Positions 832-42,573 of a DNA stretch of 52,958 nucleotides are shown here, in pieces. The translations under genes were made by a program, and so were the position numbers. Origin of the DNA: a virus; the UHGV virus genome UHGV-0074814; one strand, written 5' to 3'. The notes below the pieces were generated by a model, which saw nothing but the letters and a program-made list of their open reading frames with translations, made no database searches and was not told the DNA's origin. Position 1 is the stretch's first letter, and each line of letters starts with the position of its first letter.

Positions 832-1368
832 TAGATTTAGAAAATTATTATATCCAATTGAATTAAAACAATTTTATACTTAACGAACATCTAAACTTGT
901 TTTTTTACCTTCACCATAACTCGCTGATTTTGTATAGTTTACGTAGCGTTTTGATAACCACTTTATGGCAAAATGGAGGTTCGCTTGAAAACTTCTGTTC
1001 TTATCCAGAAATTAATGGAAATTGACAAAACTGTACTATTCGATGCGGACGTAGTGACCGGTGAGGAATGGTGGCCAACCCCGATTTCTCGTGTTTATCA
1101 CAATCCGCCACATACTTATGTAGAATTTTAAACAGGTGAACAATCTCAAAATGAATCTGACGAGCTAAGTGTTTATAGCGAATTACAAATTTGTGCACAT
1201 CGAATGATGCAAATTAGAGATTTTGTGCAATCTAACGAGGGACTGAAACCTGAAAAAATTGTTTCGGAAATAAACATTCAAATTGAACGTATTAAAAAGT
1301 GATGGCTGAAGCAATTCTGAAACACTAATTCATATTCTATGTTATTCATACCAATGTGGATTTAACTC

Positions 1369-1432
1369 CCACCAACCCACCAACCCACCAACCCACCAAC
1401 CCACCAACCCACCAACCCACCAACCCACCAAC
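1369..1432. repeat. perfect tandem simple sequence repeat, 8 copies of CCACCAAC
   Basis: Counted directly: 8 identical contiguous 8-bp units from 1369 to 1432. Confidence 0.95.
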
Positions 1433-1689
1433 CATGATTGGGCGGCGCAAGAAACTAATATCAATTAAAACAGCAAGTTATCAGTCTAAACAGAACACCA
1501 ACGGGATGGAGGAGAGACAAAAAATATCCAATGAAACCGTAGCGCGTCAGCATTCAAAAGCGGGGTTTCTTATTTTTACTTCACCAGTAACAAATACACT
1601 GTATCATAACTACATAAAAATGATTGTTCTGACTCAGATGAATTTCTTACTCTTGTGGAATGTCACTTAATGTTATTTATAGGTAAACA

Positions 1690-3579
1690 ATGAAATCCGA
1701 AACGCTAACCATCCAGCAAATTTTCCAAAATCAACGACAATATCGTGTTCCATTCTATCAACGTGCCTACGTATGGACGCAACGAAACCAATGGTCAGCT
1801 TTGTTGGAGGATATCTTCGAAAAAGCACAGAGCCGACTTTCGGGAACAAAACCAACCCCTCATTTCCTCGGCGCGGTGGTGCTGGAACCTCAACTCAAAA
1901 ACAGCTTGTTAGGTGTAGATACCATACATATTATTGACGGCCAGCAACGTTTAACCACTCTTCAATATATTCTGGCATCCATTCGATTATCATTGCGTGC
2001 TACAGGCCTTTCTGAACTGGAAGGGTTAGTATTGACTTGCTTGAAAAATACAAACGAAGCAACGATGAGAAATAAAAAGGTAGAATGCTTCAAACTGTGG
2101 CCAACTTTTCGAGATCAAACTCATTTTATTCAAAGTCTTAATGTTGATAATATTGACGATCTCCGTAATGTATTTTCTGATAGCTTCACGCAACATGGTA
2201 CGTTACGTAAACATTTCAACCACCCGCCGTCACTAGAGGCATTATGGTTTTTTACTGAAGCCTTTATAAAATGGATTAAAATAGAAAACCACTCACCACA
2301 AGAAAATGCTGTAGCACTAATTGAGGCTGTCTTGACGGATCTGAAACTGGTAAGCATATTTCTCGAAGCTGAAGATGATGCCCAAATAATTTTTGAAACA
2401 TTAAATGGGCGAGGAGCGGAACTTCATGCAACGGATCTTATTCGCAACTATATCTTTATGTGCGCTGAGCATGAAAATATTAATGCTATTGAATTATATG
2501 AAAATGAGTGGAAGATCTTTGAAGATAAATACTGGTCGGAAAAGCAACGCCGTGGACGTATTAATAAACCACGCATGGAGTGGCTTGTACATGCGACATT
2601 GCAATCAGAAAGGCAGCGTGAAATTGATCTGTCTCGCCTTTACAATGAGTATCGTGATTATGTAAGTAAGGACTTGCCTTCACAACGAGCAGATCTGCAA
2701 GTAAAGCGCCTCAAACAATATGCATCACAATATAAAGAATTGGTTGGTGGTTTTGGCACAACCCCCATCTCACACTTTGGACATCGCATCGCAGCCTATG
2801 ATGTGACGACACTCTATCCGCTTGCTTTGTTCATTTCGATAGCTAACATCGCCGATGATGAGAAAGCAGCCATGTATAATGATCTTGTCTCCTACGTAGT
2901 ACGAAGATCCGTATGTGGCCTGACGCCAAAGAATTACAACAATGTATTTATGAATGTATTGCGACACTTGTCTAAAACGGAAATTTCCAGTGTTGAGTTA
3001 CGTAATATCCTCAATAGCTTAAATGGCGAAGCCTCACGTTGGCCTGGGGACTCAGAATTTCTCAACGCTTGCATCAATGCTCCACTTTATCCTGGCAGGC
3101 TCGACGCACCGAAAATGCGCTCAATGTTAACGGAACTTGAAAGAGAACTTTGTCGCCAAGTGAAGACAGAAAAGCCTGATGTTCCAAATCTTTCTAATCT
3201 CGATATCGATCATCTTATGCCTCAAAGTTGGTATTCCTGTTGGCCTCTCGAAAATGGTCATATGGTGACAAATTCAGATGCTACGGTAATGAACCAAATT
3301 GTTCTGTCTGGAACCGATCTTACCCCTGAACAGCTACTGGTAAGGAAACGGCAACAAGCGATAGCTACGTTGGGAAATCTAACTTTGCTTAACCTTAGCG
3401 TAAACCGTTCCGTTCAGAATGCTGTATTTCTGAAAAAACGTGATGCTCTCATCGTCCACACCAATCTACGACTGAACATACCACTTATACTTAAGGATAA
3501 ATGGGATGAGAGTGAAATACAGGAGCGAGGTAAAAAGTTGGGGGAAATTGCATTGAAAGTATGGCCAAAATACGATTAA
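1690..3579 (+). CDS. DUF262/DUF1524 family protein, GmrSD-like type IV (modification-dependent) restriction endonuclease candidate
   Basis: N-terminal FYQRAYVW and IIDGQQRLTT (DUF262/ParB-like DGQQR motif); C-terminal DIDHLMPQS His-Me/HNH-like motif (DUF1524); SD AGGTAA 5 nt before ATG. Confidence 0.6.
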   Translation: MKSETLTIQQIFQNQRQYRVPFYQRAYVWTQRNQWSALLEDIFEKAQSRLSGTKPTPHFLGAVVLEPQLKNSLLGVDTIHIIDGQQRLTTLQYILASIRLSLRATGLSELEGLVLTCLKNTNEATMRNKKVECFKLWPTFRDQTHFIQSLNVDNIDDLRNVFSDSFTQHGTLRKHFNHPPSLEALWFFTEAFIKWIKIENHSPQENAVALIEAVLTDLKLVSIFLEAEDDAQIIFETLNGRGAELHATDLIRNYIFMCAEHENINAIELYENEWKIFEDKYWSEKQRRGRINKPRMEWLVHATLQSERQREIDLSRLYNEYRDYVSKDLPSQRADLQVKRLKQYASQYKELVGGFGTTPISHFGHRIAAYDVTTLYPLALFISIANIADDEKAAMYNDLVSYVVRRSVCGLTPKNYNNVFMNVLRHLSKTEISSVELRNILNSLNGEASRWPGDSEFLNACINAPLYPGRLDAPKMRSMLTELERELCRQVKTEKPDVPNLSNLDIDHLMPQSWYSCWPLENGHMVTNSDATVMNQIVLSGTDLTPEQLLVRKRQQAIATLGNLTLLNLSVNRSVQNAVFLKKRDALIVHTNLRLNIPLILKDKWDESEIQERGKKLGEIALKVWPKYD

Positions 3580-3601
3580 TGCAATTAATAAAATGATTAT
3601 A

Positions 3602-3625
3602 GCGGCCTTACATTAGTAAGGCCGC
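3602..3625. terminator. hairpin between convergent DUF262 gene and pin remnant (possible bidirectional terminator)
   Basis: Perfect 10-bp stem gcggccttac/gtaaggccgc with 4-nt loop; A/T-rich flanks. Confidence 0.4.
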
Positions 3626-3804
3626 AACTCACTATTAAATCCTTTAATTTGCATCAAGAACAGCACTGTCAGCCCTAGGCTCTCGGACTTTGTACCGCTT
3701 ATCTTGTCTTCAAAAATCAGCTCGCATCCTGCACAGTTCAACGCATTACGTTGTAGATCGATTTTCTGGTCATTTGTTGATACGCAAACATAGCCAATAA
3801 GCAT
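3613..3804 (-). pseudogene. truncated serine invertase (Pin/Gin/Hin family), N-terminal ~45 residues conserved then divergent
   Basis: MLIGYVCVSTNDQKIDLQRNAL matches invertase catalytic N-terminus (Ser in VSTNDQ); ORF only 64 aa versus ~185-190 aa; SD GAGGGAG before ATG at 3804. Confidence 0.65.
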
Positions 3805-4659: not shown

Positions 4660-5026
4660 TCTCAGGAGCCGTCGAAGTGTCGACGGCTTTTACTTCTTTT
4701 TTGTAGTCCATCCAGGCGGATAGTTTTTCTTTATCTGTACTGCTGATATCACCAAGCATTAATTCCACTCGCCAGTCAGCTGTGACATTATCGGCATGAG
4801 CAAGTAACTGCATTCGCTGATTTTCAGCACGTGCGACATAATCAATCGCCGGAGATTTCAGTACCGGTAAACCATTTTCATCTGACGTGATTAATTTACC
4901 CCCTTCCTGCTGTCCGGCAATTAATTCATTGTATAAGTCTGTACTTATCTCAACAATGTCAGCAGGCATGTCGCTGTTTATACCATCAAAGAAAAAACCA
5001 TTAGTCGATTTTGAGAAATAAATCAT
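4631..5026 (-). CDS. tail fibre assembly protein (expressed orientation)
   Basis: C-terminus AVDTSTAPEISWPELPEV matches Tfa motif; follows the tail fibre gene; start taken at the ATG (MIYFSK) at 5026 instead of the upstream non-ATG start of the ORF track. Confidence 0.6.
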   Translation of the reverse strand: MIYFSKSTNGFFFDGINSDMPADIVEISTDLYNELIAGQQEGGKLITSDENGLPVLKSPAIDYVARAENQRMQLLAHADNVTADWRVELMLGDISSTDKEKLSAWMDYKKEVKAVDTSTAPEISWPELPEV

Positions 5027-5034
5027 AGATATAC

Positions 5035-5691
5035 CTATACACCGATTGCTACCCAAAAACAGGACCTTTCATATTTGACAATTTCTCCCTGAGATATACC
5101 GCCAACAATTATATAGAACTGTGATTTGGTGATATCAGAACAGTTCGCAATGCCCATTGCAGATATACCCGCCACCGACGTTGTATGTGGTACAGCCAAC
5201 AGCGCAAGTGAACGACTTGGGAATGTTACCGGGTAAGTCACCGTATAGTTTGATGCTCCACTGACTATACCCCACTGAATAATCAGACCTGAAGGGAGTT
5301 TTTGAAAACCCGTTGATGAAAGTGAACTGGCAAACGCCGCCATATCCGGAATTTGGTTTTGCTCGTTACCCACATTTCGTTTTGCCGCTTCTCTCAAACC
5401 AAGGTTTTGAAGAGCCGTTTTCACCGTGCCGTCCGATTTGATATCGCCAAACGGATTTTTGCGACTTAACAGCAGCGCACGAAGCGCGGTAAGCAGCTGG
5501 TCATGCCGCCCCTTCTCCAGGCTGGCACCGGATGCCTCCACCACGCTGCAGAGCTCTTCCTGCAACATGTCAAAGTAGTCATCATCCAGATCGGTGGCAG
5601 GCGTGCCGGTCTGGGGGTTACCACGGGTAAAACCGTTCTTACCCGCGCCGAACTTATCCTTCTGCGCGGTTTTCGTGTCTATACGATGCAT
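5035..5691 (-). CDS. tail fibre protein (Mu S / e14 Stf-like) with constant N-terminus and invertible C-terminus
   Basis: Position after baseplate genes; crossover site at 5389-5414 lies inside the gene; followed by Tfa. Confidence 0.55.
5389..5414. repeat. invertase crossover site, right arm, inside tail fibre gene
   Basis: ttctctcaaaccaaggttttgaagag is an inverted near-copy of 3859-3884. Confidence 0.5.
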
Positions 5692-5694
5692 GGA

Positions 5695-6279
5695 TTACTC
5701 CGGATATTTAAAAATTACGTAGGTATGCGACGGGCAGAGTTTGTTAAGCACACATTCGACAACTGTGTCGCCCCAGATACGCAGTGCGGAATCACAGGGA
5801 TCGCCACATGTCATCCAGGTGGTGTTGGTGGCGGCTGGCATGTTGACCTGCCAGTAATACCGCCATTCAGGCGCGTTCACAGCGTCAGTACAGGCCGATG
5901 AGCAGGTGAACGTGCTTTTGTCGTATCGCGTGATAGTGGCATCTGGTCTGCCCAGGGCAGCAAGCTGTGCAAGATAAAAATCCTCGTTGATGCCGCCCGC
6001 CAGGTTAACCTTCGCATCCAGCCGTTGCTGACGCTGGCGAAGGGTCTGTGTCCCTGCGGGAATACATTCATCCGGCAGACCGCACAGACGCTCCCAGCGG
6101 TTTATCAGTTCAGTGGTGGTGCGCGGATCCAGCTCCCGCATCAGGGCATCCGCACGCTGATGAACGCGGGATAATGACGGTGCCGCACCGGCAATCGCCG
6201 GATCGCTGGCTGACCACGCCGGACCGGGGGGCAACAGTGCCGACAACAGACGGATGTAATCATCGTTTGTCACGTCCAT
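5695..6279 (-). CDS. Mu gp48-like tail protein (DUF2313; YmfQ-like)
   Basis: 194 aa, position after baseplate J gene; length and order match Mu-type baseplate module. Confidence 0.5.
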
Positions 6280-7328
6280 GAAATCGTCCCCAGTACCGCC
6301 AGTTCATTTTTTGCAATGGAGATATTGTCTGCCGGTGCAAGCAACTGATGGCTGTATTCCCCGTTCGCACCGGAAATCGCCTCACTGATACGCGATACCT
6401 TCAGTTCTCCCTGCGGATAACCATCACGCAGCAGGAACGAACGCAACTCCGCGGTGATGGCAGCCCGTATTTCCGGTGTGTCCGGCGTCACACGGATATG
6501 AAAATCCACCGTATGTGCCACCGGCCTGAACACATACAAATCAGAGCCTGCCACCGGGGCCAGTGGCCCGATATGTTGTCTTGCTGCCGTTTCCGTTGAT
6601 TCTTCCGGAATGGGATTAATCAGGTCACTGCTGGCAATCATCACACCGACAGTCCCCGTTCCCATCCAGTGACGGTATGTCCATGCGCGGGTAATGCCGG
6701 GCACTTCTTTAGCCCAGACGACATAGTCCCTGTCAGCCCCGCCCTGCGGCGTCCAGTAATACCGCTCAATGACGCGGGCTCGCCACGTTTCCAGCTCTTC
6801 AGTATCAAATCCACCTGTCAGGGTATCTGCCACGCCGGAAGACGGCAGACCATTAACCGGCGTGACCAGGATTAATGACGTACCGTCGTCAGCGTTACCG
6901 ACCGCGCCTGCACTTGAGCAGGCGATCGGCACGCGCAGGACACCACCGGAGCTGGTTGCATCGGCAGTTGCCGTGTACTGAACCAGGTCATCGCGCTGAA
7001 TAACACTCCCGGCGGTCACCTTCAGGCCATCGCTGACACCTTCCCAGCGCATATACCCGCTGGCAGCAGTGGCCCCCTTGCGCGGACACCGTTTCATCGC
7101 AGCATGTCGCGCCAGCCAGGACTCATCGCACAGGTCAGGCAGCATGTTCATCGCCAGATAATCGATGTACCCGTAAACCGTATGCAGCGCCGCCGCATAC
7201 ACCTTTGCCCGCACGTCTTCATCCATGCGCCGGAGCGTGTCGCTGACGTCCAGCCTGGCGAATAAATCGTTACGGAGCATACTGATATTTTCTGCCAGCG
7301 TCGGGCGCTGAAATTCACTGTCCGCCAT
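6270..7328 (-). CDS. baseplate J-like protein (Mu gp47-like)
   Basis: 352 aa; order and size in Mu-like baseplate block. Confidence 0.6.
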
Positions 7329-23542: not shown

Positions 23543-23836
23543 ATGAAAAAAATGTTGTTTTCTGCCGCTCTGGCAATGCTTATTACAGGATGTGCTCAAC
23601 AGACGTTTACTGTTGGAAACAAACCTACAGCAGTAACACCAAAGGAAACCATCACCCATCATTTCTTCGTTTCGGGAATTGGGCAGAAGAAAACTGTCGA
23701 TGCAGCAAAAATTTGTGGTGGTGCAGAAAATGTTGTTAAAACAGAAACCCAGCAAACATTCGTAAATGGATTGCTCGGTTTTATTACTTTAGGCATTTAT
23801 ACTCCGCTGGAAGCGCGTGTGTATTGCTCACAATAA
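23543..23836 (+). CDS. bor: Bor-family lipoprotein (serum resistance protein)
   Basis: MKKMLFSAALAMLITGCAQ lipobox signal and near-identity to lambda Bor as recalled; opposite strand to lysis genes as in lambda; SD AGGA. Confidence 0.8.
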   Translation: MKKMLFSAALAMLITGCAQQTFTVGNKPTAVTPKETITHHFFVSGIGQKKTVDAAKICGGAENVVKTETQQTFVNGLLGFITLGIYTPLEARVYCSQ

Positions 23837-24805: not shown

Positions 24806-25132
24806 TTACTCCTTAGAGCCACCAAACTTGTTACCGATTACTCTCATTGCAGCCCCACGAATAGCATCAACACCGATCAGCCCCACCCCACCACCAATGG
24901 CAACAGATAGTGATTTAGGCCATCCGACATACTCAAGAGCGGATGCAAAAGTCAGCGTCAGAGCGCCACAGAGTAGAATTTCGAGTGTTTTTCGCTTCCA
25001 GCCGCCACCACCGCCAAAATAGGCAATACGTAAACCAGCCATAACAATCGACATAATCACTGCGCCCAGCGGTGTGTCTCCACGCCACCAGCTCTGGACC
25101 AACTCCAGCCATGTATTTGGGTTATGAGGCAT
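24806..25132 (-). CDS. holin (putative)
   Basis: 108 aa with hydrophobic helices and charged C-terminus, immediately upstream of endolysin. Confidence 0.6.
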   Translation of the reverse strand: MPHNPNTWLELVQSWWRGDTPLGAVIMSIVMAGLRIAYFGGGGGWKRKTLEILLCGALTLTFASALEYVGWPKSLSVAIGGGVGLIGVDAIRGAAMRVIGNKFGGSKE

Positions 25133-25283
25133 TTGTAGTTATCTCTCACCTCGCTGATACAGCAGGTGCAAATTGAGGAAACATCATGTACCGCAAATCA
25201 GAAGCGGAAACGTCAAAGAAGCCGAGTCAATGGATAACTGCGGGATAGGCTAGGACCAAGGAATCCCCAGACCCAGAAACGAC

Positions 25284-25306
25284 AAAACCCGCTCGATGGC
25301 GGGTTT
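25284..25306 (-). terminator. hairpin terminator upstream of holin (tR'-like candidate of the late operon)
   Basis: Stem aaacccgc/gcgggttt with 6-nt loop; on minus strand followed by TTTTGTCGTTT. Confidence 0.4.
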
Positions 25307-25350
25307 AAGCTGTGTGGCGAAGTGAGCACACTTAACAGATTACGATATTT

Positions 25351-25379
25351 TTTGCGTACGCGTTAGTGTTTTGATAGAA
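25351..25379 (+). promoter_or_regulatory. candidate sigma70 promoter for the cargo cassette
   Basis: TTGCGT (25351-25356), 17-bp spacer, TAGAAT (25374-25379), 44 bp upstream of the ATG at 25424. Confidence 0.3.
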
Positions 25380-25423
25380 TTTTCAGCCACATAAAAATTC
25401 ATTCTTATAATTCGGGATATATA

Positions 25424-26599
25424 ATGGATATAACTTGTTTAGAATGTGGCAATGTTCTTGACGACCCAACTGTAGCTTGCGATAAATGCGGTGCCACGCC
25501 TCATGTTGTAGTGCTGGGCAAACAATCGTACTTTCCTATTGGTGCTGTAACAGCAAATCTTGAAAAAAATGATTCAAGAGCATTTGATTATCGATTAGGT
25601 GAAGTTTGGGATCTAAAAAATGAAGTCACATCTGAATTCATAACCAGAATTGAGAAAAAATTTAGCCGAAAAAACAAATTTCATAACTTCCTAGACTCAG
25701 ATCACAACCCTTCATCCATTCCTACGATCCTAAAAAAATACATTAATAAAAATAATGAATTCATTGATTTATCTAGAGCTATAATAGAGAAGCTTAAACA
25801 TAATGCTAATAACGAATCGAGAGTTGCCCAACTTCAGGGGGGGAGCGTTGTTTTCATCCACTATAAGTCTACCGAACCAGAGGATTTGGGGAAACTTCTA
25901 ATCGTAATGGTTGATAAACAAAGCGCCTATGACTTTGATTCGGATAAGTTGACCCCAACAAGATTAAATCCAATTAATACCGATGCCTTACGGCAGGCTG
26001 CGATGTTCGATTTAACTTTATTCGAAGCCAGTTATCCAGAAAACAAGGGTGACTCATATGTACATTTCTTGCAAGGTAAATCTAAAAGCGATTTTTTCAA
26101 AGACTCATTAGGTTGCCGACATGATTCGGACAATAAAAGAAGCATTCAGCAATTATTCAGTGCTATAGATATTTTTGCTAGTAAAAACTCACTCGGTCGT
26201 GTACTGCGTGATACTATTGACAATGAAGTTAAATCCTTACTGGAAAAAAAATCAAAAGATAAACACGGAAATAAGTCCGTTAAGATAGAGGATATTTCAA
26301 AAATAATTGACTCATGCCTGACTGATTCACACAAATGTAAGGGAACGTTTGTCGATTTTGTTAATCTTAATGGTTTCCAGATTGACCCTCAATTTGAACC
26401 AACTCCTAAAGCAGCTGAAAGCGCGCTTACAATTGAAGTGGCAGATAACGACAATAATTTTAAGTTGAAAATAATGCGTGGAGCTATTGGAGACGAAAAG
26501 TCAAATAAGCCTGTAATTCTCACTGACAACAAATGCGAAATTGTGATAAAATTGAGTCAGGCAAATTATGATGAACTCAAAAGATATAGAGACAGCTAA
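25424..26599 (+). CDS. zinc-ribbon protein with NdpA/YejK-like (NA37 nucleoid-associated) domain; candidate defence component A
   Basis: N-terminal CLECG-N10-CDKCG zinc ribbon; central GGSVVFIHY...YVHFLQGKSKSDFFKDSLGC resembles YejK GGIVLFCHY...[23 protein letters not shown]; AT-rich relative to flanks. Confidence 0.5.
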   Translation: MDITCLECGNVLDDPTVACDKCGATPHVVVLGKQSYFPIGAVTANLEKNDSRAFDYRLGEVWDLKNEVTSEFITRIEKKFSRKNKFHNFLDSDHNPSSIPTILKKYINKNNEFIDLSRAIIEKLKHNANNESRVAQLQGGSVVFIHYKSTEPEDLGKLLIVMVDKQSAYDFDSDKLTPTRLNPINTDALRQAAMFDLTLFEASYPENKGDSYVHFLQGKSKSDFFKDSLGCRHDSDNKRSIQQLFSAIDIFASKNSLGRVLRDTIDNEVKSLLEKKSKDKHGNKSVKIEDISKIIDSCLTDSHKCKGTFVDFVNLNGFQIDPQFEPTPKAAESALTIEVADNDNNFKLKIMRGAIGDEKSNKPVILTDNKCEIVIKLSQANYDELKRYRDS

Positions 26600-26601
26600 T
26601 A

Positions 26602-27816
26602 ATGACAATTGCTGATGACTTATCAAGATTAGCGCAGATTATTAACGGAGCCTCAAGCAGAGTTGAGGGCTACTACACTGTCATAAGTCTTGAAGAAAGC
26701 ATTGTTATTGTAAATAGTTCTGAAATAATTAGACTGTTACAATCTATAGGTTATAAAAAGGCAACAACCTGCATCGAAAATAATGAAATTTGGCTAGATC
26801 GCCAAGCTTCATCTTGGGATGATGCTATAATTTATGAGAATGTTGAGTCTTTTTGGTCTAGAGTAAACACCCAAAACGCTCTTCCGAAAAATTATATCAT
26901 CGGAACGCCGTTAATACTCCCTACTTCTAAGAATGAAAGCATCGAAAAAATCCATATTTTCTTTATGTGGAAAGATATCCTTTCATTAATTTCTGATCAT
27001 CATAACAGTGACTGCTCTGTCTTATTTTTCACCAATGAAGACAAAAGTTATACAGTCGAACTCACGCATTTTTTACAATATAGCGAGATTAATCGCTTAT
27101 CGAACTCGTCTCTTAAATATGAAATTATAAAGGAGCTTCTCGACACAATAAAAATCAATGATTTACACAAAAGCGAGCGCAAGCTCGTTATACGCTCAGC
27201 CATAAACGAAGTATTTAAAGCAAATGGTACGTTCAATTTCTTTGACTTGCTTAACTCTACTGAACTCGTCAGGAAAAAATATGATGAACTATATGAGATT
27301 TACACAAAGAGGTTTTCTGTAAATAAAATTCTTAACGAACTCGATGAGAAAAATCTTGAGTTCACGAGTAAAATTAACGAATTCATATCATCTAATCAGA
27401 CAAAAGCATTGACTATTCCCGGTGCATTAATAGCAGCTGGTGGCTTAGTGAAGGCTAATGAAACAACCGAAGCAATATTGATTATCGCAGGACTTTGGAT
27501 GATAAAAAAAGTCAATTACATTTCTATTGAGATATTCAATGAAACATTCGACAACTTACGTTCTCGAGTGGAGTCCGCTTTCGATAAGTATTTAAAGTTT
27601 GAAGAAAATAAAGAAATCAAAGATAATGCAGATAGTATTAAGAGTAGCATTACAGGTTTGATTGATAAAGCTAAAAAAAGGATGAGAACTGTTAAATATC
27701 TCGCATCAGCCATGTTTTATGGAGGCCTTATTTACGTTGGATATAAACAGTTCCCAGTCTTTTTTGAAAAATCGGCAGTAAATCTATTTTATTTTTTATG
27801 CCATACTATAAGCTAA
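26602..27816 (+). CDS. membrane protein with two C-terminal TM helices; candidate defence component B (effector?)
   Basis: Starts 3 nt after the stop of the upstream gene; hydrophobic segments ALTIPGALIAAGGLV...AILIIAGLWMI and YLASAMFYGGLIYVGY. Confidence 0.5.
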   Translation: MTIADDLSRLAQIINGASSRVEGYYTVISLEESIVIVNSSEIIRLLQSIGYKKATTCIENNEIWLDRQASSWDDAIIYENVESFWSRVNTQNALPKNYIIGTPLILPTSKNESIEKIHIFFMWKDILSLISDHHNSDCSVLFFTNEDKSYTVELTHFLQYSEINRLSNSSLKYEIIKELLDTIKINDLHKSERKLVIRSAINEVFKANGTFNFFDLLNSTELVRKKYDELYEIYTKRFSVNKILNELDEKNLEFTSKINEFISSNQTKALTIPGALIAAGGLVKANETTEAILIIAGLWMIKKVNYISIEIFNETFDNLRSRVESAFDKYLKFEENKEIKDNADSIKSSITGLIDKAKKRMRTVKYLASAMFYGGLIYVGYKQFPVFFEKSAVNLFYFLCHTIS

Positions 27817-28167
27817 CATTGCTAAACAGCCATCAACAAACCCCATTGCAGTTTGCAGTTCCTTCCTAATTGTGCCATCAGAGCATTTTCTCTTCTTCGC
27901 AATAGTGCGTAATGAGATACCGATAACAAAGTGGGCGATGATGAGCTCATATTCCTCTGGTTTATACCTTCTCAACCGAGCCACACAACTGTCTATCATG
28001 ATGCCTTCGTCATCATCACACTGAATCCGTGACTTTTTGCCATGAGGTAAAAGTCCCTTGAAACCAGCCGCTATCGGCTGCCAGTCCACTCCGCTATTGT
28101 CTGAAGCAGCCCAAGCTCCCCAACGATCCATTACTTCATACATATCACGCATCAACTTTCTCCACAA
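27796..28167 (-). CDS. late-gene antiterminator Q-like protein (small Q family)
   Basis: 123 aa; position upstream of lysis region after DUF968 gene; family assignment from memory of small Q proteins (QuuD-like). Confidence 0.5.
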   Translation of the reverse strand: MWRKLMRDMYEVMDRWGAWAASDNSGVDWQPIAAGFKGLLPHGKKSRIQCDDDEGIMIDSCVARLRRYKPEEYELIIAHFVIGISLRTIAKKRKCSDGTIRKELQTAMGFVDGCLAMLAYSMA

Positions 28168-39193: not shown

Positions 39194-39403
39194 GCGTTTA
39201 AGTTTCTCAATCCCACATTAATTATCTCATCACACATGTAACAGGCCAAACAGACTGCTCTGAGCGACGAACCGTTGTTGACCAGTAACGCCATAGAGTA
39301 TATTCAGTAAGTGTTCCAATGTATATAAGAAATGCGCTGTGTATATTTTTAATTCAAAATAGTTTGAAGCACAATCATGAAACAGATTCTTATGAATACA
39401 AAA

Positions 39404-40519
39404 TTAAATTAAATCAAATAGCCCATGTTCATCTATAGCCTTTGAACTAATTAAGTTCGCGGCTTCTATGTCATTGTCACTTGCCTCAGAAATAAGGAAA
39501 AATGAATCAACATGATTTTGCAAAATAATTTCCTTATACTTCTTGAGCCATTGTAATTTACCTGTAGTGAACAATACTTTACGCGGTAGCAAAATACGGC
39601 TAAAAACTGATGGAAGATACTCACTTCTATTAAATGGAATAAAAGGGTCGCCTAAAGAAAGAATAGTTAGACGATTAAATTCACCGTGCGAATTCAATTT
39701 TTCAGCTGATTTGGCTATACCACTTGGTAAAAAAACACCTGTCTTGATACCGTTGCGTAAAGCAACAACAGCCATCATTTTATCAAAGGCAGTACCTCCA
39801 AATAATAAGGAATATCCTTTTTTAACAGAAAGATCAATAGTATCAAGAACAACTTGTTTTTCTATATCACTTGGTGACGTGCTCGAAATTATCGAAAGAT
39901 CAAAATCAGTAAATAACTGCCCAGTATAATAAAGATTTTTGCCGGTGAAAGTTGACAACTTTAAAGGAAACATTTTATCATCATGCTTAATTTCAGATAC
40001 ATTAAGATCTGTTAAGGATGGATAGTTAAAGTTTGGTGAGGCTTTTCCGTGTTTATTATTTTTTGATGCCTGCGGACTAAAAACTAGAATTTCATTTTTA
40101 TTATTACACAGGTAATCCTGTATCATTTTTTTTACAATATCCCAATCAAGACCACCGTGACCACAACCTAAAGCTGGCAGGGTGATTGTTTTTCCATGTT
40201 TATTATCCAAATATTTCGAGAGCCAATGCAGTCCTTTTTCGATATATTCGTACTTAGACTTATTTCTCCAATGATCCTTGGTGGGAAAGTTTATGATTTC
40301 TATTTCCTTACCATACGTATCATTACCTTTCCAAACAGCTGGTCTTCCTGGAGATATTTCTCCTTTTTTACACAGCAATACGTATTCATTATACATTTCA
40401 GGAAACTTATTCTTAAAAGCAAAAGCAACCCCTGCCCCCATTACACCAACACAATTAACTGTATTAATTCTAATGTCAGCAGCATAATCGAAAAAATCAC
40501 CATCAACATATCTAATCAT
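39404..40519 (-). CDS. macro-domain protein (DarG/TARG1-like) with C-terminal Rossmann-like domain; candidate antitoxin
   Basis: GDFFDYAADIRINTVNCVGVMGAGVAFAFKNKFPEMY and ALGCGHGGLDW macro motifs; start set at ATG with SD AAGGAGG (ORF track extends to 40645); AT-rich. Confidence 0.55.
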   Translation of the reverse strand: MIRYVDGDFFDYAADIRINTVNCVGVMGAGVAFAFKNKFPEMYNEYVLLCKKGEISPGRPAVWKGNDTYGKEIEIINFPTKDHWRNKSKYEYIEKGLHWLSKYLDNKHGKTITLPALGCGHGGLDWDIVKKMIQDYLCNNKNEILVFSPQASKNNKHGKASPNFNYPSLTDLNVSEIKHDDKMFPLKLSTFTGKNLYYTGQLFTDFDLSIISSTSPSDIEKQVVLDTIDLSVKKGYSLLFGGTAFDKMMAVVALRNGIKTGVFLPSGIAKSAEKLNSHGEFNRLTILSLGDPFIPFNRSEYLPSVFSRILLPRKVLFTTGKLQWLKKYKEIILQNHVDSFFLISEASDNDIEAANLISSKAIDEHGLFDLI

Positions 40520-41015: not shown

Positions 41016-41226
41016 TTCTGCCAATAGTCTTTGCAGGTGAAGTGCATGTTATATATTTTTTAGGGAATATATTTTCTAATTATTTCTCAGATAAAAATTT
41101 GCAGAACGAAATTACTTTACATAATACCGAATGTTACAGATTATTTTATTGCATATAAGCATTGAACTAACCACTATCACAGTGACTATGTTAATCATAA
41201 AATCTGCATCAAATTCAAAAAGCTCC

Positions 41227-42573
41227 TCATAAACTGTTCCCCTGCAATCTTTGGAGAACTTCATCCCGGAGATCATCGATCCCGTCAGAAACCTGAGCTA
41301 ACCAAACTTGACTTAATGAGCCAATATCAGCCTTACTTAGGGCTACTAACATATTGATATCTTCAGAAGATGTAACTATATCGAACAACTGATTTTTATT
41401 CCTCCCTTTAGCTACTATTTCCCCCAATAAATCATCATACGTAACTAACATCATTATTTTTCTAACTAGATCGGTTTGTATGACTGGCAGATCTTCTGTC
41501 AAAATTCGTTGTAGCATCGCAAGTGACTTCCTAGGATGCTCTCCATCTGCCTCATGCATGTAATTATTATTCCAACGTGTTTTAGGCCCTTTGCCTATAT
41601 CATGCAAATAAGCGGCCAACTCCAAAACTTCCTGATGAATAGAGTCTAATTGATAAAACTCTGGTGAATTAACTACAAGACTAGCCACTCGTCGACTATG
41701 AGAGCCAACATCTTCATTATGAGGCCCGTAGCTCGTCCCCAATCCATCGATATCTTCAAGCTCTTGGATGGAGGAGAAATTACCACGAATTGCACTTAGA
41801 GCATCACTAATACTTTGAAATTTTGGCCTCGTTTCTCGTTGAAATGAAGTTACATATTCAATAGCTTCATCAAAAAGCATTTTTAACACTACCGGTCCCG
41901 TGACTAAGGATGAGGACCAGTTTCCAGGTTGATAATAATAATGTTGAAAATCACCCTCAACAATATTTGGTGGAACAATACCTTTGTTCTGGAAAATACT
42001 CCTCACAATATCAGACATAGAACGATTCCATGTAATTATCTGATTTATTTCGCTTAAAGAGACATGATCTGGCAGCAAAAGTTCTGCCATCTTTTTATGC
42101 CTCTGAGTCTCGTCAGCATAACCCCATGCATTATTATCTATGGTAGCCCAATCTAATACATCAAGCTGGTCAGCTTGAGTATTACCAGAATAAAAGTTCG
42201 GTGGATTAACTGTATTTGCGGAAGCATCTGTAAAATATGACCCATTCCTTGTTTCGAGTGATAATATAGAAACTGAAAGATAGATAATAAATTGCTGATC
42301 TACATTTTTTTTATGAAGAACAGACAATTGCATGGGCGTTTTTTTTGCAAAATAAAAAGGAACATAATCATGAACACAACGACCATTCGTATTAGGCACC
42401 TGCATCACTGCCCTACGCCCCTGTATTCCTTCATCAGCAACATTCACATGTGATATACGACGTGCAATTTTCTGATTAGTCGAAAACAGCCCAGTTTCAA
42501 TTATTGATTCAAGATTATCTACTGACGTAAAGTGATATGCATTTCGGTGTCTATGGTGAACAGGAACTGTCAT
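41227..42573 (-). CDS. DarT-like (DUF4433) ADP-ribosyltransferase domain fused to HD phosphohydrolase domain; candidate toxin
   Basis: N-terminal YHFTSVDNLESIIETGL, HDYVPFYF and YFTDASA resemble DarT; C-terminal HSRRVASLVV...LAAYLHDIGK is an HD motif; SD GGGGGA; AT-rich. Confidence 0.5.
   Translation of the reverse strand: MTVPVHHRHRNAYHFTSVDNLESIIETGLFSTNQKIARRISHVNVADEGIQGRRAVMQVPNTNGRCVHDYVPFYFAKKTPMQLSVLHKKNVDQQFIIYLSVSILSLETRNGSYFTDASANTVNPPNFYSGNTQADQLDVLDWATIDNNAWGYADETQRHKKMAELLLPDHVSLSEINQIITWNRSMSDIVRSIFQNKGIVPPNIVEGDFQHYYYQPGNWSSSLVTGPVVLKMLFDEAIEYVTSFQRETRPKFQSISDALSAIRGNFSSIQELEDIDGLGTSYGPHNEDVGSHSRRVASLVVNSPEFYQLDSIHQEVLELAAYLHDIGKGPKTRWNNNYMHEADGEHPRKSLAMLQRILTEDLPVIQTDLVRKIMMLVTYDDLLGEIVAKGRNKNQLFDIVTSSEDINMLVALSKADIGSLSQVWLAQVSDGIDDLRDEVLQRLQGNSL

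Follow-up and report, generated by a model that had tools for sequence, protein, structure and literature searches.

This study concerns UHGV virus genome UHGV-0074814, a stretch of 52,958 nucleotides (nt; hereafter the window) that is the reverse complement of positions 2227905-2280862 of Escherichia coli APEC O2-211 (NZ_CP006834.2) and carries an e14-like prophage with a contractile tail at icd. Within this prophage, a two-gene cassette lies on the plus strand between the minus-strand genes for the antiterminator Q and the holin. Judged by the identity of its two proteins, the cassette is the already published, experimentally validated two-gene anti-phage system DS-1. Its proteins received their name and validation in 2025-2026, so that the cassette is no new discovery. 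The cassette genes, here called DS-1A and DS-1B, and their surroundings are as follows:

25424-26599, plus strand: DS-1A, a YejK/NA37-type nucleoid-associated anti-phage protein of 391 amino acids, identical to WP_000355468.1 (PHROG 3767)
26602-27816, plus strand: DS-1B, the partner anti-phage protein of 404 amino acids, one substitution from WP_000150292.1 (PHROG 5023)
25371-25398, plus strand: candidate sigma-70 promoter of the cassette, TTGATA-16 nt-AAAAAT (9/12 in a promoter scan, a consensus match only)
24806-25132, minus strand: holin S of the lambda family, the left flank of the slot and outside the system (Pfam Phage_holin_3_1, 5.7e-25; annotated in NZ_CP006834.2)
27796-28152/28167, minus strand: antiterminator Q, the right flank (Pfam Phage_antitermQ, 3.2e-47; annotated WP_001205470.1)

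A previous examination of the DNA, made from the letters without database searches (the sequence-only reading), had described two translationally coupled, AT-rich plus-strand genes inserted antisense between Q and the holin, and this description was confirmed. The TAA at 26597-26599 ends DS-1A and the ATG at 26602 opens DS-1B, leaving a gap of 2 nt; the Pfam matches to Phage_antitermQ and Phage_holin_3_1 establish the flanks; and the guanine-plus-cytosine (GC) content of the cassette is 0.347 compared to 0.508 in the rest of the prophage. The 3' ends of DS-1B and Q are convergent and overlap by 21 nt, and a perfect TATAAT occurs at 25406-25411, upstream of DS-1A. The two open reading frames (ORFs) are not chance occurrences, since each has hundreds of homologues at E < 1e-200.

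The identification with DS-1 is supported by direct comparison and by curated models. DS-1A is identical to WP_000355468.1 at 391/391 residues, while DS-1B matches WP_000150292.1 at 403/404, with S131 in the window and A131 in the published protein (checked against strain FORC_043, which carries the latter), and is identical to WP_000150293.1 as annotated in APEC O2-211. The curated NCBIfam equivalog models for the two DS-1 proteins were both exceeded: NF053868 (DS1_1_antiphage, nucleoid-associated anti-phage protein) matches DS-1A over its full length with 451.4 bits (cut-off 330; E = 2.1e-135), and NF053869 (DS1_2_antiphage) matches DS-1B with 375.3 bits (cut-off 315; E = 2.7e-112). Both families were already present in PHROGs, where that of DS-1B (5023) carries no function. 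Neither protein was matched in a PADLOC v2 (2023) scan, because DS-1 postdates that library. The claim of the sequence-only reading that no described system has this pairing is therefore wrong, as the exact proteins are those of DS-1 and curated models for them exist.

DS-1 was described in the DefensePredictor study of DeWeirdt, Mahoney and Laub (bioRxiv 10.1101/2025.01.08.631726, January 2025; Science 2026, PMC13092281). Under the working identifier D390, it comprises the transcription unit WP_000355468.1 plus WP_000150292.1 of E. coli GCF_003886375.1, and it showed anti-phage activity when cloned with its native promoter and upstream region on a low-copy plasmid (10.1101/2025.01.08.631726). 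The -log10 efficiencies of plating given for D390 in Table S7 of that study were highest for Bas1 (7.6), followed by Bas26 (2.7), Bas3 and T3 (1.7 each), T5 (1.0) and T7 (0.9), and plaques of SECphi27 were smaller (10.1101/2025.01.08.631726). Its authors list the 'YejK nucleoid-associated domain' as newly validated in defence, and give no mechanism, no single-gene deletions and no account of the genomic slot (10.1101/2025.01.08.631726). The published reduction in plating bears out the prediction that the cassette is a defence system, so that it stands as a true positive, a defence system that was recognised, and its logic conjectured, from the sequence alone. The present analysis adds to the published work the co-inheritance of the two genes in 5/5 distant loci, the occurrence of a zinc ribbon in half of the DS-1A family, and the location of the cassette in a variable antisense slot that is delimited by the Q gene and by a conserved module of about 90 nt.

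Co-inheritance and architecture of the two proteins

Homologues of DS-1A and DS-1B range from Enterobacterales to Pseudomonas, Vibrio and marine gammaproteobacteria. The sequence-only reading had proposed that the pair be sought elsewhere, and at all five distant loci tested a gene of the A family was directly followed by a gene of the B family. For three DS-1B homologues with 24-29% identity, the adjoining upstream gene matched the A-family hidden Markov model (HMM) at 1e-100 to 1e-104, with overlapping stop and start codons, and for two DS-1A homologues with 35-38% identity the next gene matched the B-family HMM at 6e-94 and 3e-74; the junctions at the five loci are overlaps or 6-nt gaps. 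The neighbours at these distant loci include a pair of OLD-TOPRIM and UvrD genes (Gabija-like), BrxR, a HEPN protein, AbiEii, AAA_21 ATPases and an integrase. The pair is not confined to prophages, being also found in defence islands on the chromosomes of Pseudomonas and marine bacteria. At a DS-1-like locus of Pseudoalteromonas (1195-3638), a DprA-like (DNA_processg_A) gene overlaps a HAD-hydrolase/phosphoribosyltransferase gene, with an integrase alongside; this second pair may be another defence or conflict module.

Two regions can be distinguished in DS-1A:

25436-25489, plus strand: N-terminal zinc ribbon with C5, C8, C19 and C22 (CxxC-N10-CxxC), read from the sequence
25613-26551, plus strand: NA37 / YejK-like domain, residues 64-376 (Pfam PF04245; PDB 9be2 by profile and fold)

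The larger domain matches Pfam NA37 at 1.2e-23, the A-family profile finds YejK (9be2) among PDB sequences at E = 7e-20, and a Foldseek search of the PDB with an AlphaFold model of DS-1A (predicted local distance difference test score, pLDDT, 85) returned 9be2 as the sole significant match (E = 1.3e-14); the likeness to YejK/NdpA that had been read from the spacing of conserved residues is thereby upheld. An assignment as a YejK orthologue was considered and rejected, the score of 81.4 bits for the NCBIfam equivalog NF001557 falling below its cut-off of 341, and by these scores DS-1A is taken to be a paralogous NA37 protein and not the housekeeping YejK. The predicted CxxC-N10-CxxC zinc ribbon is present at cysteines 5, 8, 19 and 22, in a region where pLDDT is just 51-65. 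It occurs in 18/36 aligned A-family members and at three additional distant loci, which are marine, spanning the enterobacterial branch and some marine members, while the Pseudomonas-type branch has an acidic tail instead. Since it is seen in only half of the family, the zinc ribbon is an accessory rather than a defining feature.

Three regions of DS-1B are relevant to its possible action:

26602-27402, plus strand: soluble N-terminal part, residues 1-267, an alpha/beta domain followed by helices (AlphaFold, pLDDT 85.5)
27259-27534, plus strand: most conserved stretch, residues 220-311, a long helix that leads into a hydrophobic helical hairpin, KALTIPGALIAAGGLV...AILIIAGLWMI
27682-27765, plus strand: C-terminal hydrophobic helix, residues 361-388, which lies within the modelled helix 337-383

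As the sequence-only reading had stated, DS-1B has no recognisable enzymatic motif: no enzymatic family was matched in a Pfam scan, the B-family profile found no match among PDB sequences, and Foldseek against viral predicted structures returned none at E <= 0.001. A channel of the CorA/Mrs2/ZntB type was also considered and rejected, the combination of a specific fold match and a GMN motif ending the first transmembrane helix not being found. The two C-terminal transmembrane helices that had been proposed hold up only in part. Across 38 family members, stretches with a hydropathy above 1.6 map to DS-1B residues 270-311 and 361-388, the latter reaching at least 1.6 in most members, but in the protein of the window itself the Kyte-Doolittle maximum is 1.56 (residues 291-309) and no 19-residue stretch reaches 1.6. 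The AlphaFold model is all-helical across the hydrophobic regions, with helices at 220-268, 271-284, 288-331 and 337-383, and residues 270-311 are long enough for a helical hairpin. A hairpin plus one C-terminal helix is therefore more likely than two transmembrane helices.

Conservation is unevenly distributed along DS-1B, with the N-terminal 200 or so residues being its most variable part, the invariant columns clustering at 226-280, and the juxtamembrane core being nearly invariant. The N-terminal part has a net charge of -9 and an isoelectric point of 5.2, and it is acidic in 38/38 family members (mean charge -8.5), an acidity that is not in itself diagnostic of a DNA-mimic; this part of the protein is a candidate binding surface for DS-1A. 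A distant DS-1B homologue of 527 amino acids from Pseudoteredinibacter (P0059, locus 5001-6584) has an extra C-terminal extension past the last hydrophobic helix and is labelled 'SH3 domain-containing' in its source, which suggests that its C-terminus faces a binding compartment, possibly the periplasm or cell wall.

It is very unlikely that the pair acts by superinfection exclusion at the envelope, where DS-1B would keep the DNA of certain siphoviruses and podoviruses from entering, or block a step linked to their receptors, and DS-1A would do no more than regulate its expression. Such a role would fit the complete loss of Bas1 plaques, the lack of an enzymatic motif in DS-1B and the many prophage cargo genes near lysis genes that encode exclusion proteins. 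However, the receptors of the sensitive phages differ, with LptD proposed for Bas01, FhuA used by T5, and lipopolysaccharide being the receptor of T3 and T7, and the reduced plaque size of several phages speaks for a block at a later stage than entry. In addition, the presence of the pair in defence islands outside prophages argues against exclusion, and the stop-start coupling and strict co-inheritance of a 390-residue NA37 protein suggest that it acts with DS-1B as a partner and not as a transcription factor.

The antisense slot between Q and the late genes

The cassette was found at >=99% identity in 106/5,426 complete E. coli genomes, and every full-length copy among the matches listed adjoins a Q gene; it was not found in the deposited phage genomes searched. 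From the Q alignment and BLAST boundaries, the variable region of the slot extends from about 25372-25398 on the left to 27807-27842 on the right. The start of 25133 previously given for the cassette is the edge of the holin gene and lies outside the variable part. The C-terminal 10-15 residues of Q change with the type of cassette; the boundary of recombination falls within the coding sequence of Q, and each cassette therefore carries its own C-terminal tail of Q. At least seven unrelated cassettes occupy this slot, each of them antisense to the late genes; those found besides DS-1 are:

plus strand, Shigella phage SfII (orf50/orf49) and GPEC620: PDC-M53 A+B (PADLOC, 2e-32 and 3e-54)
plus strand: TIGR04255 protein plus two genes
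plus strand: pair of 87 and 247 amino acids
plus strand, Stx2a phage: pair of 343 and 179 amino acids
plus strand, mEp460: gene of 308 amino acids
plus strand, phage cdtI: pair of 313 and 147 amino acids

The second genes of several of these cassettes start with hydrophobic stretches. On its left side, the slot is bordered by a conserved element:

25284-25372, minus strand: conserved module of about 90 nt, common to the window, SfII and FORC_043 (three-way alignment)
25285-25306, minus strand: strong intrinsic terminator within this module, AAACCCGC-CATCGA-GCGGGTTT then TTTTGTCGTTTCT (8 pairs, 5 of them G-C), a candidate tR'

The stem-loop of the terminator is invariant in the three-way alignment. 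Stx1a and Stx2a phages are among the 87 phage records with the module, which invariably separates an antisense cassette from the late genes and is unannotated in almost all of the records listed. No match was returned when the whole window was scanned against Rfam, so that the module is not accounted for by any known RNA element. In the Stx phages, the module is followed by a small ORF, a methylase gene, transfer RNAs and stx. Because stx, which lies downstream of the module, is expressed from the late promoter, the module can be read as pR'/tR', and it is a candidate for the late promoter, Q-utilisation site and tR' terminator of this Q family. No convincing sigma-70 consensus for a late promoter was found on the minus strand at 25307-25380, and the pR' assignment accordingly draws on conservation and position only.

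This arrangement corrects the earlier placing of the cassette at the site where lambdoid phages carry stx, since stx lies downstream of the module while the cassette is flanked by the Q gene and the module. From the same position it follows that the cassette is probably outside the Q-dependent late transcript. A literature search for a described defence hotspot between Q and the holin turned up nothing specific. The interval between Q and the late promoter of these prophages, Stx phages included, holds interchangeable antisense cassettes and may be a place to seek further defence candidates.

The prophage setting also bears on whether DS-1 is primarily a defence system at all. The nucleoid protein and its membrane partner could conceivably serve lysogeny, for example by silencing the chromatin of the AT-rich prophage or by lysogenic conversion, and resistance would then be a side effect of expression from a plasmid; the role of the YejK-type nucleoid proteins is poorly understood, and iss is one of the prophage cargo genes among which the cassette is placed. 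We consider this explanation highly improbable, given that protection came from the native promoter on a low-copy plasmid, that the family is embedded in defence islands of unrelated bacteria, and that PDC-M53, a further candidate defence system, occupies this slot in related phages.

Several other loci of the prophage carry potential cargo. The gene iss, which encodes a Bor-family serum-survival lipoprotein (23543-23833, plus strand), is likewise AT-rich (GC about 0.38-0.40) and antisense, and sits between the lysis genes and the HNH/terminase genes. At the attachment end, between icd and the prophage integrase, genes for a DarT-family protein (41085-42431) and a macro-domain protein (39262-40503), both on the minus strand, form a candidate DarTG-like defence pair, with the genes being about 580 nt apart and DarT unusually long (448 amino acids). 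The other end of the prophage carries a gene for a DUF262-domain protein of 629 amino acids (1375-3264, plus strand) beside the displaced fragment of icd (368-535); many proteins with a DUF262 domain are GmrSD-like type IV restriction enzymes. The prophage may therefore hold three defence loci, namely DS-1, the DarTG-like pair and the DUF262 gene.

Proposed action and comparison with known systems

A framework for the action of DS-1 is offered by PANGU, a group of defence systems built on YejK-like proteins (Li et al., April 2026, bioRxiv 10.64898/2026.04.06.716658). In type I PANGU, which pairs Pag1A with the GRel toxSAS Pag1B, the YejK-like sensor is freed from degraded DNA and binds a DNA-mimicking domain of the effector, and the DNA-binding-deficient variant Pag1A-KRK causes constitutive toxicity together with the effector (10.64898/2026.04.06.716658). 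Type II consists of the nucleoid protein Pag2A and the transmembrane effector Pag2B, in which an acidic 'DNA-mimic' domain at the N-terminus is joined to a transmembrane domain at the C-terminus (10.64898/2026.04.06.716658). In the E. coli type II operon (PANGU-Ecu), both genes are needed, neither is toxic alone and the phenotype is abortive; Pag2A binds the N-terminal domain of Pag2B at 19 nM, and a Pag2A fusion to green fluorescent protein (Pag2A-GFP) leaves the nucleoid upon T4 infection, while the mode of Pag2B activation is stated as unknown by Li et al. (10.64898/2026.04.06.716658).

We consider it probable that DS-1, as cargo of the e14-like prophage at icd, is a nucleoid-sensor and membrane-effector abortive-infection system with the architecture of type II PANGU. 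In such a system, the YejK-like DS-1A would sit on the host chromosome and would be freed when an infecting phage degrades it; the freed protein would then bind the acidic N-terminal part of DS-1B, whose juxtamembrane helix and hydrophobic helices would damage the inner membrane, so that cell growth would stop before the phage completes its cycle. The basis for this proposal lies in the sequence identity with DS-1, the YejK fold, the strict co-inheritance of the two genes, the conserved acidic and hydrophobic features of DS-1B, and the context of defence islands or of a hotspot; we infer that DS-1 is a member of type II PANGU, that chromosome degradation is its trigger and that DS-1B permeabilises the membrane. 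Among the phages affected by DS-1, Bas01 is T1-like (Drexlerviridae) and Bas26 is T5-like (Markadamsvirinae). T7 degrades the genome of its host. T1 and T5 are cited as host-genome degraders (10.64898/2026.04.06.716658).

The phage spectrum calls for caution, as DS-1 acts on T1-, T5- and T7-like phages, while for the PANGU systems tested T4 was sensitive and T1 and T5 were resistant (10.64898/2026.04.06.716658). The same discrepancy favours another trigger, by which DS-1 would recognise a specific phage protein or DNA rather than the loss of the host chromosome, with DS-1B still acting as a membrane effector; recognition could occur through the variable N-terminus of DS-1B, through the lineage-specific zinc ribbon of DS-1A, or by binding of DS-1A to incoming phage DNA. 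It is also in keeping with such a trigger that the effect varies steeply within one phage family (10^7.6 for Bas1 but 10^1.7 for Bas3), that the zinc ribbon is patchily distributed among the branches of the A family, and that a variable N-terminal region of about 200 residues is joined to a near-invariant juxtamembrane core, a combination typical of a fast-evolving recognition domain. However, a variable N-terminus is equally expected from co-evolution of each DS-1B with its own DS-1A partner, and relocation of the nucleoid protein has been observed for a type II system (10.64898/2026.04.06.716658). A different trigger appears unlikely, and a nucleoid sensor released by chromosome degradation is the preferred explanation.

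A further-reaching suggestion in two parts can be made only tentatively, and we regard it as possible but doubtful: DS-1 would represent a zinc-ribbon lineage of nucleoid-sensor and membrane-effector systems with a trigger unlike that of published PANGU, and the interval between Q and the late promoter in this group of lambdoid and Stx phages would be an undescribed antisense defence hotspot, where read-through of the early operon past Q could shut off the cargo upon prophage induction. Such a lineage would act on the T1-, T5- and T7-like phages that the published PANGU systems do not stop, and the conserved juxtamembrane helix and hairpin of DS-1B would constitute a new kind of membrane effector. 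The scientific interest of the cassette is now narrower, and concerns the mode of action of the membrane partner, the signal by which T1-, T5- and T7-like phages are sensed, whether the zinc ribbon has a role, and the nature of the hotspot between Q and the promoter.

Compared to DS-1 as published, the cassette in the window has the same gene order, 2-nt junction and flanking Q gene as in FORC_043, and differs only in host strain, the left flank of the prophage and one residue. PDC-M53, a PADLOC candidate system found in SfII, shares with DS-1 the antisense slot, the two-gene composition and a hydrophobic second protein, but the sequences are unrelated and the A-family and B-family HMMs give no match. 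The chromosomal YejK/NdpA (PDB 9be2) has the same fold as DS-1A and belongs to the same Pfam family, NA37, whereas DS-1A shows about 19% identity to it, has an extra N-terminal zinc ribbon and a dedicated partner, and is borne on a mobile element. Type I PANGU resembles DS-1 in its YejK-like sensor, but its effector is a soluble alarmone synthetase, a domain not matched in DS-1B. Type II PANGU differs from DS-1 in its opposite phage spectrum, and the word 'zinc' has zero occurrences in the preprint describing it, while DS-1A has a zinc ribbon. The architecture of DS-1 nevertheless appears to be that of type II PANGU as described, and PANGU-Ecu may or may not be the same sequence. Li et al. report type II PANGU from E. 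coli, in association with Gabija, restriction-modification and further defence genes (10.64898/2026.04.06.716658). It shares with DS-1 this occurrence in E. coli and the Gabija-type and other defence neighbours, as well as a two-gene operon in which a YejK-like gene comes first and is followed by a partner that is acidic in its N-terminal and hydrophobic in its C-terminal part, and the DNA-binding sensor coupled to a membrane effector that was proposed in the sequence-only reading matches this published architecture.

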